A stretch of DNA of 64,000 bases from Escherichia coli (GTDB taxonomy: Bacteria; Pseudomonadota; Gammaproteobacteria; Enterobacterales; Enterobacteriaceae): NCBI RefSeq assembly GCF_036507355.1, contig NZ_AP027877.1; one strand, given 5' to 3'. Position numbers: made by a program. Numbering within the stretch: position 1 is the first letter of the stretch; each line of letters starts with the position of its first letter. Shown here piece after piece: positions 24,001-30,000 of the stretch.

Positions 24001-27000
24001 CTATTATGACGAGAATTTCAGTGACTATTACTATGGCATTTCAGAGAGTGAGTCCCGTCGTAGCGGTCTGGCAAGTTATTCCGCGCAGGATGCCTGGGTG
24101 CCCTATGTCAGCCTGACGGCAAAATACCCGATAGGAGAGCACGTCGTATTGATGGCGAGCGCCGGATACAGCGAGCTGCCGGAAGAGATTACCGACAGCC
24201 CGATGATTGATCGTAATGAGAGTTTTACCTTTGTCACCGGCGTGAGCTGGCGTTTTTAATTCACCGGTGGATGTCGGTGCGGCTGGCCTACGCTCTCGCA
24301 CCGACTTGTATGCCTGATAAGACGTGTTAAGCGTCGCATCAGGCAATGTGCTCCTTACGTTGGATGCGGCGCGAGTGCCTTATCCAACCTACGGATGGCA
24401 ATGCTTTTCCTCATTCACCCAGATCCGCATTTCGCCTTCACCCCGGTTGGCCCAGCTAAACCATGGGATAAAGGTCAGAGTTTGCGTCTGGCGTTTGGCT
24501 GGCGCGCTGTCGTAATGCCACAGCGGTTGCTGCTCTGGATTGCTCTGTTCATACCGGTAACCCGGTGCCTGGATTAAGATCTTATGGCTAAACAATCCCT
24601 TGCCTTCAAATGTCGTAAATGGCGCATCGGTGGGCAGCCACAGATTATGCAGTGACTCGCCGTTGTCGGCCTGTTCCAGGCAATACACCAGCGGGCCGCG
24701 CTGAATCGCCACTTTTCCGGCGACGTGACGCACCAGCGGGTTACCGTAAACGCGGCGTACCGGCATCGGCAAAGTCAGATTCAGCGTATCGCCCTCCTGC
24801 CATTCGCGGGTAATGTGCAAATACCCTTTACGAATATCCTGCTCGACCTCTTCCCCATTCAATATGATCTGCGGTTGTGTGCACCAGTCCGGCAGACGTA
24901 AAGCCAGCGTATGACGTACCGGCTGGGGCGATTCAACCGCAATCGTCACCTGCTCCTGCCACGGATAGTTCCCGCTAACCCGCAGGCGCAGCGTGCCATT
25001 TTCTACCGGCACTTCCATGCTGTTTCCTGCGTATATGTTGATATACAACGCATCTTCACGCGGCGTGTAGAGATAATGACCAATCGAGGTCAGCACGCGG
25101 GCGATATTTGGCGGACAACAAGCGCAGCCAAACCAACGCTGGCGGATCGGTTTAACGTGATCGTAGATATGGTTGAATTTCAGCGATTTTGGATGTACTT
25201 CCAGCGGATTCACATAGAAGAAATGTTTGCCATCCAGCGCCATGCCGCCGAGCACGGTGTTGTACAGTGCACGCTCCATCACATCGGCATATTGACTGTC
25301 GCCTTCCATTTCCAGCATTCGTCGGGCAAACATCATCAGGCCGATGGAGGCGCAACTTTCAGCGTATACCGTGTCATTCGGCAGATCGTAATCGCTAGTG
25401 AACGCTTCGCCGCTGCTTTGCGAGCCAATGCCGCCGGTAATATATAACTGACGCTGGGCCATATTGTTCCACAGCCGCAGGCAGTCCTGACGCTTGCTGT
25501 CATCGTGACTTAAACGCGCGAGATGCGCGACGCCGGTCATCAGATAGACAAAACGTACCGCGTGACCGATGGCGGTTTGCTGTTGCGCAAGGGGCAAATG
25601 TGCCTGGCTGTAGGCTTTGTCTTTCACCATCCACGCCGGGCCGTAGGTGTGCCAGTGCGATGTCTGCCCGCGCTTTTCATATTCCTGGTCGTAATAGTGC
25701 GGTTGCGCACCACGCTGTTCGACAAAATAGTTCGTCAGCGCCAGGTAGCGCGGCTCTTCAGTCACTTCATACAGGCGCATTAGTGCCAGTTCAATTTCCG
25801 GGTGACCAGGATAACCGTGTAACTTACTTTCATCTGGACCAAATACGCTGTCGATATGATCGGCCAGGCGGCAAACGACCCCCAGCAAGCGCCGTTTTCC
25901 CGTGGCCTGGAAGAAGGCGACTCCGGCTTCAATCAGATGACCTGCGCAGTAAAGTTCATGACACTCCGCCAGATTGCTCCAGCGTTCTTCGGGTGCTTTT
26001 ACCGTAAAGTAAGTATTGAGATAGCCGTCTTCGCATTGGGCGGAGGCGATCAGTTCGATTACCTCGTCGGCGGTTTTTTCCAGTTCGGCGCCCGGCTTCT
26101 GGCACAGCGACCAGGCTACCGCTTCCAGCCATTTGGCGACGTCGCTGTCCTGAAACACCATCCCGTAAAATTCACCCTCCTGAAGTCCGGCGGCAATGCG
26201 AAAGTTTTCAATCGCATGGCTGGGTTCCGCTTCTGGGATACGATCGTTCAAGGCATCCCACTGATAAGGAATCACCACGTCGCGGACCAGTTGTTGGTAC
26301 TGACCGAGGAACGGATCGCTGACCGTCAGTTTATGCAGATCGACTTCCGAAATGTTCATCTTGTGCTCCTTAAGGCTGTACATGACGCTGACGCAGGTCG
26401 GTAGCTATGCGTGACATCATAGGATTATTGAGTTTGCAAAAGCGGATCGCCCCTGCCAGCAGCAGGTGGAATAGCGCAGGCAGTAATGTTTCCATCGCCG
26501 CGATCCCGCCAAGCGAACTGGCGGTCTGGTTTTCCACGCCAGGCTGGTAGGCGACAAAAATAAACAGCAGGCTGATGATCCCGGCGCTGGAGGCCCAGGC
26601 CAGCTTGATGAAAAACAGATTGAAGGCGAAGTTCATGCCGGAAGAACGTACGCGGGTTTTCCACTCGCCGTAGTCATCGACAAAGGCCATCAATGAGAAG
26701 TGCAGTGGCAATGTGAAGCCAAGAATTACGCCATTACCGAGGATCACCGCCAGCCACAGCGTTTGATAAGCCGGGCCGGAGGGCAGGAACCACATCAACA
26801 CCGCCAGCGCAGCGAGGAGCAGGTTGGTGTAGTAGTAAATTTTGACGGTATCGAAACGCCGCGTTAACGGGCTGACAATCACCGAGCCGATAATGGAGGC
26901 GAAGGTGACCATGGTGAAGAACAGCGACGTGTAGCCCGTACTGCCTTGTAAGACGTAGGTAATGAAGTACATATACCCACCGCCGCGAATGTTAAAGACG

Positions 27001-30000
27001 TTAATCAGCAGGAAAGACATGACCAGCATCAGCAGCAGTTGGTCGTTGTTCCGCAGCCCGGCAAGATGTTCGCGCAGGGTAAATTTCCCCATTGTGGAGA
27101 GTGGCACCCGTTCACGAACCCAGAAAAAACAGCACAGGAACATCACCACGGCAATGGCGCACAGCACGCCGACGCCCAATTGATAGCCGCGCGCGGCATT
27201 ACCCTGACCGAAGAGATCTACCATCCACGGTAAGCCTACCGAAACCAGAAATCCCGCTACGCCACAGAGAACGAATCGCCAGGACTGGCAGGAGATCACT
27301 TCATTGTGGCGGGTGGTCATGGTGTTGATCAGCGCGCAGTACGGTACGTTGATGGCGGTATAACCGACTGAAAGGAGCAGGTAAGTACCGAACGCCCAGG
27401 CGATTTTTACTCCCATGCTGGCATCTGGCACGGTGAACGTCAGGATGCCGATAATGCCGATGGGAATGGCAATCCATAGCTGCCACGGGCGAAAGCGCCC
27501 CCAGCGACTTTGCGTCCGGTCGGCAATGACGCCCATCACCGGGTCGGAGATGGCATCAAACACGCGCAGTGCAATAAACAGCGTGCCAACCAGCGCCGGA
27601 GTTAATCCAAAAACGTCGGTGTAGAAAAAGGTGAGAAAATTCATGATCAGGCAAGTTATTACGGTGCCGCCTGCGTCACCCAGGCCGTAGCCTATTTTTT
27701 CCCGTACAGATAACGCATCGTCAATTTTACCTTTAGCGATATCAGCGGTAGTAATCGGTGTAGAGGTCATAGATATTCCTCGTGAATAGGGAGCAATTTT
27801 TAGTTTTATTGAAATGACCTGATTAATTCTGCCGTGAACGGGAATATCAACAAGGCGAGAAAAGAGTAAAAAAAGGTGACGATTCCGACCTGAATTTAAA
27901 AGTGTGAAATGGATCAGGTGAAATTAATATTTTTGATTAATAATCAAAAGGTAATGTGTTTAATCATTAATGAATAAGCGGGAAATTACATATCAATGCT
28001 CGAATTATCCATGACGTTACCGATTAAAGTGCAAAATGGTGGATTATTTATTTCCCGTGGCGTAGGGAGGCATCCTGCAAGGCGGCTGGAGTCATGGGAA
28101 ATTATCTTTGTCGAAAAAGGTCGATTAACGATTCAGGAAGAAGAACGGATATTTCTGGTCGATGCGGGAGAGAGTTTATTACTCTGGCCGAACCGACAAC
28201 ATGTTGGGGTGGAGGATTTTCCCGCCGATCTCAAATTTTACTGGCTGCATTTTGAGGTTAAAGCGCCGGACAACGACCCTCGCTGGCTTACTCATCTTAG
28301 CGTGCCGCAACAAACGAAGGTTGTCGATCCGCAGGCGCTGGTGGCCCTGTTTCGCCAGTTCTTAAGCGAACAGGAAAAGCATCAACGCACTCCGGCGCTG
28401 GAGTTTATTGTGCTGCTCATTTTGCAGCAGCTCACCCGTGACGCGCGTCTTGATGAACAGGCCGATGGCGCAGGCACCACCCTTGCCTGGAAAGCGCAGA
28501 AACTGATCCGCACGCAATATCATCGCCCGCTTTCTACGGCGCTTCTGGCCCGCGAGCTGTACTGCAATGCCGATTATCTTGGGCGCGTCTACCGGCGGGT
28601 GTTTCATCTGACGTTAACAGAAGCAATCCATCGCCAGCGGGTGCGCGAAGCCGAAAAGCTGTTAATTAGCGAAGCGCGATCGCTCACGGAAGTGGCGGCG
28701 TTGTGCGGGTTTAATGACGTTGGCTATTTCCGGCAGATTTTTCGCAAACACACCGGTTTAACGCCAGCAGCGTGGAAGCGGCGTTACAGCAAGGAACATA
28801 TCAATTCGTAGTGCCGTGTCGATTTCGCTTTCGACATCACGTCTGAAACAGGTGGGGGAGAAAAATCTCCTGAAACCACTGCGTGAAACCGCGCAGGCTA
28901 TTTCTAATGAACTGGGATTTACTGTCAGGGATGACCTGGGCGCGATCACATAACGCTTTGGACAAGTGCCAAAACTTTAACATTTCCTTCGTTGGATCAA
29001 AGCAGTAGGGACGCGCTCTCTGGCACTCTGCTGTTTTAGTGCAAAGGAGTGATCATGAACCGGTTTATTATTGCGGATGCGACGAAATGTATCGGTTGCC
29101 GTACCTGTGAAGTGGCTTGCGCAGTGTCGCATCAGGAGAATCAGGATTGCGCTGCGTTGTCACCAGACGAGTTTATTTCCCGTATTCGTGTCATTAAAGA
29201 CCACAGCTGGACCACGGCAGTAGCCTGTCATCAGTGTGAAGATGCACCGTGCGCGAATGTCTGCCCTGTTGACGCGATAAGCCGCGAACATGGGCATATT
29301 TTCGTTGAACAATCACGTTGCATTGGCTGTAAAAGCTGTATGCTGGCTTGCCCGTTTGGTGCGATGGAGGTCGTTTCTTCGCGCAAAAAGGCGAGGGCGA
29401 TTAAGTGCGATCTGTGCTGGCATCGGGCGACGGGACCGGCCTGTGTTGAAGCCTGCCCGACAAAGGCGTTGCAGTGCATGGATGTCGAGAAAGTGCAGCG
29501 GCATCGGCTACGTGTTTGAAACGTTTTCCGGCGTTTCTCAACGCCGGAATAGTGCGCTTTGTTTATGCCAGATGCGGCGTAAACGCCTTATCCGGCCTAC
29601 AAATTCTTCCAAATTCAATATATTGCAGAAATCATGTAGGCCTGATAAGCGTAGCGCATCAGGCAATTTTTAGTGACTTTCAGCCCAGGCTCTTTCTATC
29701 TCTTCCGCCAGAATCTTCACCCCCGCCTCAATTTTCTCCGGCTCTGGTACGTAGTTCATGCGCATACATTGATGCGTATGCGGCCACGGTTTATCCAGCC
29801 CTGGGAAGAAGTTGTGCCCCGGCACCATCAGCACGCCGCGTGCTTTCAGGCGCTGATAGAGCTGCTCGGTCGTAATGGGCAAATCCTTAAACCATAGCCA
29901 GAGGAAAATGGCTCCTTCCGGTTTATGAATCAGGCAGCGATCTTCCGGTAAATAGCGGCGAATGATGGCGATAGTTTCCTGAACACGCTGGTAGTAAAAC

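Follow-up and report, generated by a model that had tools for sequence, protein, structure and literature searches.

The stretch of DNA analysed here, referred to as the window, is 64 kb long and comes from Escherichia coli. Between yiaT and ysaA it carries a cassette of three genes, which encode an AraC/XylS-family regulator, a cation symporter of the GPH family and a hydrolase of glycoside hydrolase family 127 (GH127). The gene order around the site, as given by an open reading frame (ORF) scan and by the RefSeq annotation, is yiaW, yiaV, yiaU, yiaT, the three cassette genes, ysaA, avtA and malS. Sequence comparisons with other genomes indicate that the cassette is an old enterobacterial locus, which lies beside yiaJ-sgbE in the ancestral arrangement and has become accessory in E. 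coli through repeated loss and not through gain. Coordinates are those of the whole window, and residue numbers of the hydrolase refer to its 664-residue ORF. The site is made up of the following features:

23519 to 24259, plus strand: yiaT, an outer-membrane protein of the MipA/OmpV family, the conserved left flank (ORF scan, RefSeq name).
24311 to 24390, no strand: two repetitive extragenic palindromic (REP) elements, a cluster resembling a bacterial interspersed mosaic element (BIME) between yiaT and the GH127 stop codon (consensus matches, hairpins).
24389 to 26359, minus strand: GH127 hydrolase, 656 residues, cytoplasmic, a predicted beta-L-arabinofuranosidase; the longest ORF is 24389 to 26383, 664 residues (Pfam, PDB matches).
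26370 to 27770, minus strand: GPH-family cation symporter, 466 residues, the first gene of the two-gene operon (TIGR00792).
27771 to 27995, no strand: divergent regulatory region (footprint across 17 genera, raw sequence).
27996 to 28811, plus strand: AraC/XylS-family regulator, 271 residues (PF02311 and PF12833).
28812 to 28823, no strand: junction of an 8976-bp deletion, the right edge of the three-gene unit (colinearity with E. coli S10).
28813 to 28953, plus strand: pseudogene remnant of yiaJ/plaR (IclR family), 141 nt, comprising the final 46 codons (RefSeq, translation).
29055 to 29519, plus strand: ysaA, a 4Fe-4S ferredoxin-like protein, the conserved right flank, with REP elements beyond it at 29567 to 29665.

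A preliminary description of the window had placed three ORFs of 664, 466 and 271 residues here, flanked by yiaT and ysaA, and all of them are found. The 664-residue ORF, however, is likely to begin eight codons too early and the product to have 656 residues: the second ATG, at 26359, is preceded by a Shine-Dalgarno sequence, TAAGGAG, 6 nt upstream and is also the RefSeq start. With this start a gap of 10 nt separates the hydrolase gene from the symporter stop codon, and the apparent overlap of the two genes disappears. In PapRG-06-5, a near-identical RefSeq genome (99.9% identity over 4.9 kb), the genes are labelled 'glycoside hydrolase family 127 protein', 'MFS transporter' and 'AraC family transcriptional regulator', followed by an IclR-family pseudogene 'missing N-terminus'. 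Correct RefSeq annotations of the genes existed before this analysis, thousands of genomes carry them, and the fragments left in K-12 have been named as well.

In E. coli K-12, the space between ysaA and yiaT is occupied by plaR(yiaJ)-yiaKLMNO-lyxK-sgbHUE, the operon that the preliminary description had placed at this position, and by two pseudogenes, ysaC and ysaD, between sgbE and yiaT. Taken alone, the comparison of the window with K-12 gives two different gene sets between ysaA and yiaT, which favours the view that a horizontally acquired accessory island has replaced yiaJ-yiaK...sgbE, in the manner of the O-islands and K-islands. The pseudogenes speak against such a replacement. The first, ysaD (b4649), corresponds to positions 24497 to 24686 of the window, which lie inside the GH127 gene, close to its 3' end (89.5% identity), and the second, ysaC (b4648), which abuts ysaD in K-12, corresponds to 28708 to 28823, the 3' end of the regulator gene (94.8% identity). 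The window in turn retains the yiaJ remnant, which had gone unmentioned in the earlier account; it follows directly after the regulator stop codon, and its 46 codons encode exactly the C-terminal residues of K-12 PlaR. Because K-12 and the window each keep a remnant of the other locus, the two loci are neighbours and not alternatives. An intact cassette is absent from K-12 at this site, as the earlier account implied, but its remnants are still in place. Likewise, the gene sets of K-12 and the window do differ, but the implied substitution of one locus for the other does not stand, as the two are adjacent in the ancestral arrangement. The sequence of K-12 ysaD (L002, 14919 to 15110) is 88 to 89.5% identical to intact E. 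coli GH127 alleles, compared with about 98% for the flanking genes, so that the remnant has either decayed or come from a divergent allele.

E. coli S10, against which the breakpoints were defined as the intact reference, carries both loci in the order yiaT, GH127-GPH, AraC, sgbE...yiaK, yiaJ, ysaA. The strains C5, JE86-ST05 and A39 agree with S10 in gene order up to yiaN, where the compared stretch ended. Positions 23000 to 28823 of the window are colinear with 7005 to 12828 of the S10 locus (L003), and the window from 28813 onward is colinear with L003 from 21805 onward. The window has lost the intervening 8976 bp (L003 12829 to 21804), and with them the 5' part of yiaJ, yiaKLMNO, lyxK and sgbHUE. 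Its junction reads TAGTGCCG followed by TGTCGAT and has a GCCG microhomology, with 9 matches in 11 positions over GCCGTGTCGAT. The left breakpoint falls within the GC-rich hairpin located in the gap between sgbE and the regulator gene. In K-12, a deletion of 4021 bp has one end within the GH127 gene and the other within the regulator gene, and its ends share hardly any microhomology. A second deletion, of 210 bp (L003 8292 to 8501, equivalent to 24287 to 24496 of the window), has removed the REP cluster together with 108 nt from the 3' terminus of the GH127 gene, at a GGCTGG microhomology. One half of the hairpin at the window breakpoint (GCCGGGGC...GCCCCGGC in S10) was removed by the window deletion (site 28812 to 28896). 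Transcription of the regulator gene may now enter the yiaJ stub and possibly run on to ysaA; a terminator-like hairpin lies at 28879 to 28896.

The arrangements were counted in 5426 complete E. coli genomes by blastn, using coverage thresholds and junction-specific queries. The cassette is at least 80% covered in 2311 genomes (about 43%), and this patchy presence would suit an island. In 1893 genomes, however, a chimeric query made of the regulator gene and K-12 sgbE is covered end to end, and these genomes have both loci, adjacent to each other. The K-12-type junction occurs in 2460 genomes (45%) and the window-type junction in 426. The latter is present in O157:H7 TW14359, and O145:H28 strains match the junction-spanning query end to end.

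The same side-by-side order is shared by many other genera and is found in Citrobacter youngae, Klebsiella, Raoultella, Enterobacter, Phytobacter, Kosakonia, Salmonella diarizonae and others. Elsewhere, namely in C. amalonaticus, C. portucalensis, Leclercia and Silvania, the cassette stands directly beside ysaA as it does in the window, and the yia-sgb genes are absent. The coding part of the cassette has a GC content of 0.52 to 0.57, similar to its flanks, and AT-rich sequence is confined to the divergent intergenic region. Neither the ORF scan nor the RefSeq annotation shows an integrase, tRNA gene or insertion sequence at its borders. The synonymous divergence (dS) from other Escherichia lineages is about 0.45, and the amino acid identity falls from about 96% in these lineages toward the distant genera. 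These observations together effectively refute the acquisition of the cassette as a replacement island. In Escherichia whittamii (L005, 4681 to 6388), sgbU is followed directly by the AraC-type gene and sgbE was not detected; this is apparently another small deletion variant at the site.

The three genes are one conserved and co-inherited unit under strong purifying selection. Relatives of the hydrolase were scanned with one genome per species, which gave 80 loci with identities of 69 to 96%, nearly all from the Enterobacteriaceae and Erwiniaceae. The divergent AraC gene, the GPH gene and the GH127 gene are arranged and oriented alike in about 65 of the 80 loci, and GPH adjoins GH127 in about 76. 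In Pantoea, Buttiauxella, Erwinia, Enterobacillus and Cedecea, this linkage is kept without any of the probed flanking markers nearby. When the window is compared with two other Escherichia lineages, for which dS is unsaturated, the ratio of nonsynonymous to synonymous substitution rates (dN/dS) amounts to 0.04 (hydrolase), 0.03 (transporter) and 0.06 (regulator). Over all comparisons the respective ranges are 0.02 to 0.08, 0.03 to 0.09 and 0.05 to 0.14; in the distant comparisons, where dN/dS is at most 0.14, dS is saturated.

One alternative is that the E. coli cassette is decaying, a relic without a current function that has simply not been deleted yet. More than half of the complete genomes have lost it, the GH127 gene of S10 (L003, 8394 to 10364) is annotated as a pseudogene and has an internal stop, and the orthologue in S. 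enterica subsp. diarizonae (L027, 7735 to 9720) shows one stop in its tblastn match. Nevertheless, all three ORFs are intact in the window and in three of the four both-loci genomes sampled. The dN/dS values of 0.03 to 0.06 against the other Escherichia lineages, the retention of conserved motifs in the regulatory region and the presence of the cassette in almost every enterobacterial genus sampled also stand against decay, and a relic is very improbable. In C5, JE86-ST05 and A39, the GH127 gene is intact; it differs slightly at its 3' end and encodes a variant of 659 residues.

The hydrolase has the full three-domain architecture of GH127, which consists of an (alpha/alpha)6 catalytic domain followed by a middle and a C-terminal beta domain (PF07944, residues 20-435, E = 2e-110; PF20736, 446-540, 1e-23; PF20737, 542-657, 3e-25). 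The Cys-rich motif CACCPPN that had been pointed out earlier occupies residues 420 to 426. The best homologues are glycoside hydrolases: the closest PDB entry is the Geobacillus GH127 beta-L-arabinofuranosidase 4QJY (779 bits, about 55% identity over 629 aligned residues), followed by HypBA1 of Bifidobacterium longum (3WKW, 504 bits), and then by the GH127 structures 6EX6 (383 bits) and 5MQO (315 bits) and by GH146 (64 bits). Residues E326, E342, C344, C422 and C423 are aligned with E322, E338, C340, C417 and C418 of HypBA1, and all are conserved. The zinc ligands of HypBA1 are E338, C340, C417 and C418, opposite E342, C344, C422 and C423 of the E. coli protein. The nucleophile of HypBA1 is Cys417, its acid/base is Glu322 and its zinc site is of the (Cys)3-Glu type (PMC8106489). 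Inspection of the N-terminus of the hydrolase (MNISEVDLHKLTVSDPF) reveals no signal peptide, so the enzyme is placed in the cytoplasm. Judged by its relatives, the hydrolase is most likely a beta-L-arabinofuranosidase (EC 3.2.1.185) that cleaves the non-reducing-end residue.

The cassette could also work in just this manner with a GH127 enzyme of another specificity, such as an aceric-acid-type or anhydro-sugar activity or an undescribed activity on a plant or microbial glycoside. GH127 is polyspecific, and the NCBIfam equivalog model for aceric acid hydrolase (NF049879) matches the protein at 453.6 bits. A role of family members in the breakdown of carrageenan has also been reported. A second, paralogous GPH-GH127 pair of Klebsiella and Kluyvera, with a LacI-type regulator and a ROK kinase, hints at a diversity of substrates. 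The two best solved relatives, however, are both beta-L-arabinofuranosidases. In addition, the cassette comes without any further catabolic gene, as would be expected if its product were one that the cell can already metabolise, such as L-arabinose. Assignment to the aceric acid hydrolase subgroup itself was rejected, as the score is under half of the cutoff of 950 and the best stretch covers residues 260 to 657 only. A different specificity is therefore the less probable reading, with perhaps one chance in several, and the beta-L-arabinofuranoside-type substrate proposed in the preliminary description remains the probable one.

The paralogous pair, whose proteins are 69 to 71% identical to those of the window, has no AraC-type gene and occurs in Superficieibacter, Kluyvera sichuanensis, Klebsiella spallanzanii and others. 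In K. spallanzanii (L076, 4353 to 9953), it is located between argT and purF, beside genes for a LacI-family regulator and a ROK fructokinase-like kinase. This pair may have a related but different substrate, and it informs little on the AraC-linked cassette.

The symporter belongs to the GPH family (TC 2.A.2), scoring 332.2 bits with TIGR00792 (gph) against a cutoff of 231.35 over residues 25 to 462. It aligns over its full length with MelB (4M64), and its residues R69, D72 and D76 correspond to R52, D55 and D59 of MelB, which are the cation-site residues of helix II. The more narrowly named models all score below their cutoffs (MelB 204 of 456 bits, YagG-like 357 of 610, PRK11462 322 of 836, glucuronide transporter 190 of 528). 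The regulator combines an N-terminal cupin-type ligand-binding domain (PF02311, residues 26-132, E = 1e-9) with a C-terminal double helix-turn-helix (PF12833, 184-263, E = 4e-19, with PF00165 also matched), which places it in the AraC/XylS family. The possibility that it is AraC itself was rejected, the score with the AraC model (NF007860) being 61.1 bits against an equivalog cutoff of 208. The family assignments, the conserved linkage and the GH127 catalytic set support, within the reach of sequence analysis, the earlier suggestion that regulator, transporter and hydrolase form a single sugar-utilisation unit.

The divergent regulatory region was aligned from 17 genera to obtain a phylogenetic footprint. 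A CRP-like site, TGTGAaatggaTCAGG, is conserved at 27903 to 27918 and reads GATC-N4-TCACA in the direction of the operon (27915 to 27903). Also conserved is TGATTATTAA (27946 to 27937, operon direction), which in E. coli lies within the 15-bp palindrome TTGATTAATAATCAA (27933 to 27947). A third conserved stretch, at 27848 to 27889, contains on the minus strand GTCGGAAT (27889 to 27882), CTTTTTnTACT (27875 to 27865) and CCTTGTTG (27855 to 27848). This block of about 42 bp is situated directly upstream of a weak -35/-10 pair, with a candidate -10 element, CAGAAT, at 27831 to 27826. If transcription started near 27819, the CRP-like site would be centred near -91 and the block would extend from about -70 to -29. 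An AraC-type activator sitting beside a weak -35 element, as happens at araBAD, would be expected to occupy a site of this size and position. For the regulator gene, a conserved TAATAAT could serve as the -10 element, and with a predicted start near 27952 the CRP-like site would fall near -41. A search of the block 27848 to 27889 for an AraC-type direct repeat revealed a weak similarity only, both 17-mers ending in CCTT, and no half-sites were defined.

The predicted control of the cassette resembles the textbook layout of araC-araBAD: the regulator gene diverges from a catabolic operon, a CRP-like site would lie between them, and a putative activator-sized block abuts a weak -35. The regulator is not AraC (61 against 208 bits), no match to the araI/araO sequences was seen, although no search aimed at one was made, and the binding and start sites of the cassette are predicted ones.

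These observations make it possible to propose how the cassette works and how the window came to keep it. The AraC-family protein would sense the substrate or the product through its cupin domain and, together with CRP-cAMP (CRP bound to cyclic AMP), would activate the promoter of the divergent two-gene operon. The symporter, a GPH-family protein with the conserved cation-site residues, would import a small glycoside on a cation gradient, the nature of the glycoside being a prediction. In the cytoplasm, the hydrolase would cleave a non-reducing-end beta-L-arabinofuranosyl residue by means of the zinc-bound nucleophile C422 and the acid/base E326. By analogy with HypBA1, the likeliest substrate would be a beta-L-arabinofuranosyl disaccharide or short glycoside, for example the beta-Ara2 of plant hydroxyproline-rich glycoproteins, set free by other organisms. 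The L-arabinose released would then enter the araBAD pathway. In the lineage of the window, a microhomology-mediated deletion of 8976 bp took the yia-sgb genes and spared the cassette, and in K-12 the opposite deletion occurred. On balance we consider it probable, by a fair margin over an even chance, that an ancestral enterobacterial cassette of this kind, importing and cleaving a small beta-L-arabinofuranoside, was kept in the window and lost from K-12 through deletion.

A number of points weigh against this proposal. GH127 has at least one other activity, as the match to the aceric acid hydrolase model indicates, and 55% identity does not fix the specificity; the comparison of -1 subsite residues covers the catalytic and zinc-binding set. 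In the symporter, the sugar-site residues D19 and D124 of MelB are replaced by T36 and N141, and this together with the conserved cation site suggests cation-coupled transport of a sugar other than that of MelB; the closest named models, YagG-like and PRK11462, are themselves uncharacterised 'putative symporters'. The promoter, the CRP site and the activator sites are predictions. A scan for consensus sigma-70 promoters found no promoter-like site in the intergenic region, for which reason the promoter is proposed from conservation and position alone; the missing strong sigma-70 promoter fits an activator-dependent one. No extracellular enzyme that could release the substrate is encoded near the cassette, and the substrate would therefore have to come from other organisms or from free plant glycosides or plant material. 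The three genotype counts add up to 4779 of the 5426 genomes, which leaves about 650 in other configurations. Finally, no experimental study of the E. coli enzyme or of any enterobacterial one was found in the searchable literature.

Two characterised systems are close to the proposed one. The hydrolase shares with Ara127N of Geobacillus stearothermophilus T6 (4QJY/4QK0) the three-domain architecture, the CACCPPN and E..C motifs and an alignment over the full length. The Ara127N gene belongs to an extensive arabinan-utilisation cluster of this Firmicute, which relies on ABC transport, whereas the E. coli hydrolase has a GPH symporter and an AraC-type regulator as its only partners. HypBA1 of B. 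longum (3WKW, 3WKX, 7DIF) is likewise a cytoplasmic GH127 enzyme acting on an imported small substrate, and its catalytic and zinc residues are conserved in the predicted E. coli protein. In the bifidobacterial system, the extracellular GH121 enzyme HypBA2 makes beta-Ara2, which is then imported by an ABC transporter (PMC8106489). The E. coli cassette differs in having no extracellular enzyme and in using a secondary symporter instead of the ABC transporter.

This intact and selectively maintained system, the substrate of which is probably a plant-derived beta-L-arabinofuranoside, is present in roughly 43% of the complete E. coli genomes, among them O157:H7 and O145:H28. The system has escaped laboratory study because K-12 lacks it. 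Literature searches returned no biochemical or genetic work on it, and the only E. coli-specific mention found is an AIEC (adherent-invasive E. coli) pangenome study in which GH127 co-segregates with epithelial invasion in isolates from inflammatory bowel disease, its function being assumed from HypBA1 (PMC11879602). It is possible, but at present doubtful, that E. coli and other enterobacteria use the cassette to scavenge beta-L-arabinofuranosyl disaccharides or glycosides which they are unable to release on their own. These would be supplied by other gut microbes, for instance through the action of bifidobacterial GH121 on dietary extensins, or by plant tissue, and the three-way polymorphism of E. 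coli (both loci, cassette only, yia-sgb only) would be niche-shaping. If this tentative view were true, it would have a bearing on the life of O157:H7 and O145 on plants and on the reported association of GH127 with invasive isolates (PMC11879602). The two defined deletions of the ancestral locus provide clean markers, by polymerase chain reaction or by sequence, for the three genotypes. The practical value is modest, and the main interest lies in the substrate and role of a widespread E. coli sugar system that is absent from K-12.

Beyond the GH127 gene, the yiaT-yiaU pair is found in 25 of the 80 species loci, including those of Citrobacter, Leclercia, Enterobacter and Lelliottia. The preliminary description had the unit bounded by a REP cluster on each side. 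Both clusters are real, but the right one lies past ysaA, between it and avtA and hence outside the three genes, whose right edge is the deletion junction at 28812 to 28823. The REP elements are located at 24311 to 24345 and 24359 to 24390 on the left and at 29567 to 29600 and about 29635 to 29665 on the right. As a strict 36-nt pattern matched once, elsewhere in the window, a shorter consensus was used instead; it matches at 24312 to 24325, 24331 to 24344, 24359 to 24372 and 29567 to 29596, and in the whole window it has 20 matches against 4.1 expected by chance. Hairpins occur in both clusters, those on the left having arms at 24311-24324/24332-24345 and 24343-24370/24377-24404. The elements are imperfect palindromes with the consensus, placed between convergent or tandem gene ends, as is characteristic of REP/BIME sequences.

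Two records labelled with names from outside the enterobacteria also appeared among the relatives. That of 'Chryseobacterium sp. 18061' contains an avtA-AraC-GPH-GH127 locus like that of Citrobacter, and the assembly is probably mislabelled or contaminated. A contig of Bradyrhizobium genosp. SA-3 encodes a GH127 protein 69% identical to that of E. coli, with the symporter absent. At the right flank of the cassette, the 3' end of ysaA (29505 to 29519) has a 9-nt in-frame deletion relative to K-12. The protein of the window accordingly ends in ...RHRLRV in place of the K-12 ...RHRLRQQPV, and has 154 residues (from the ATG at 29055) compared with 157.

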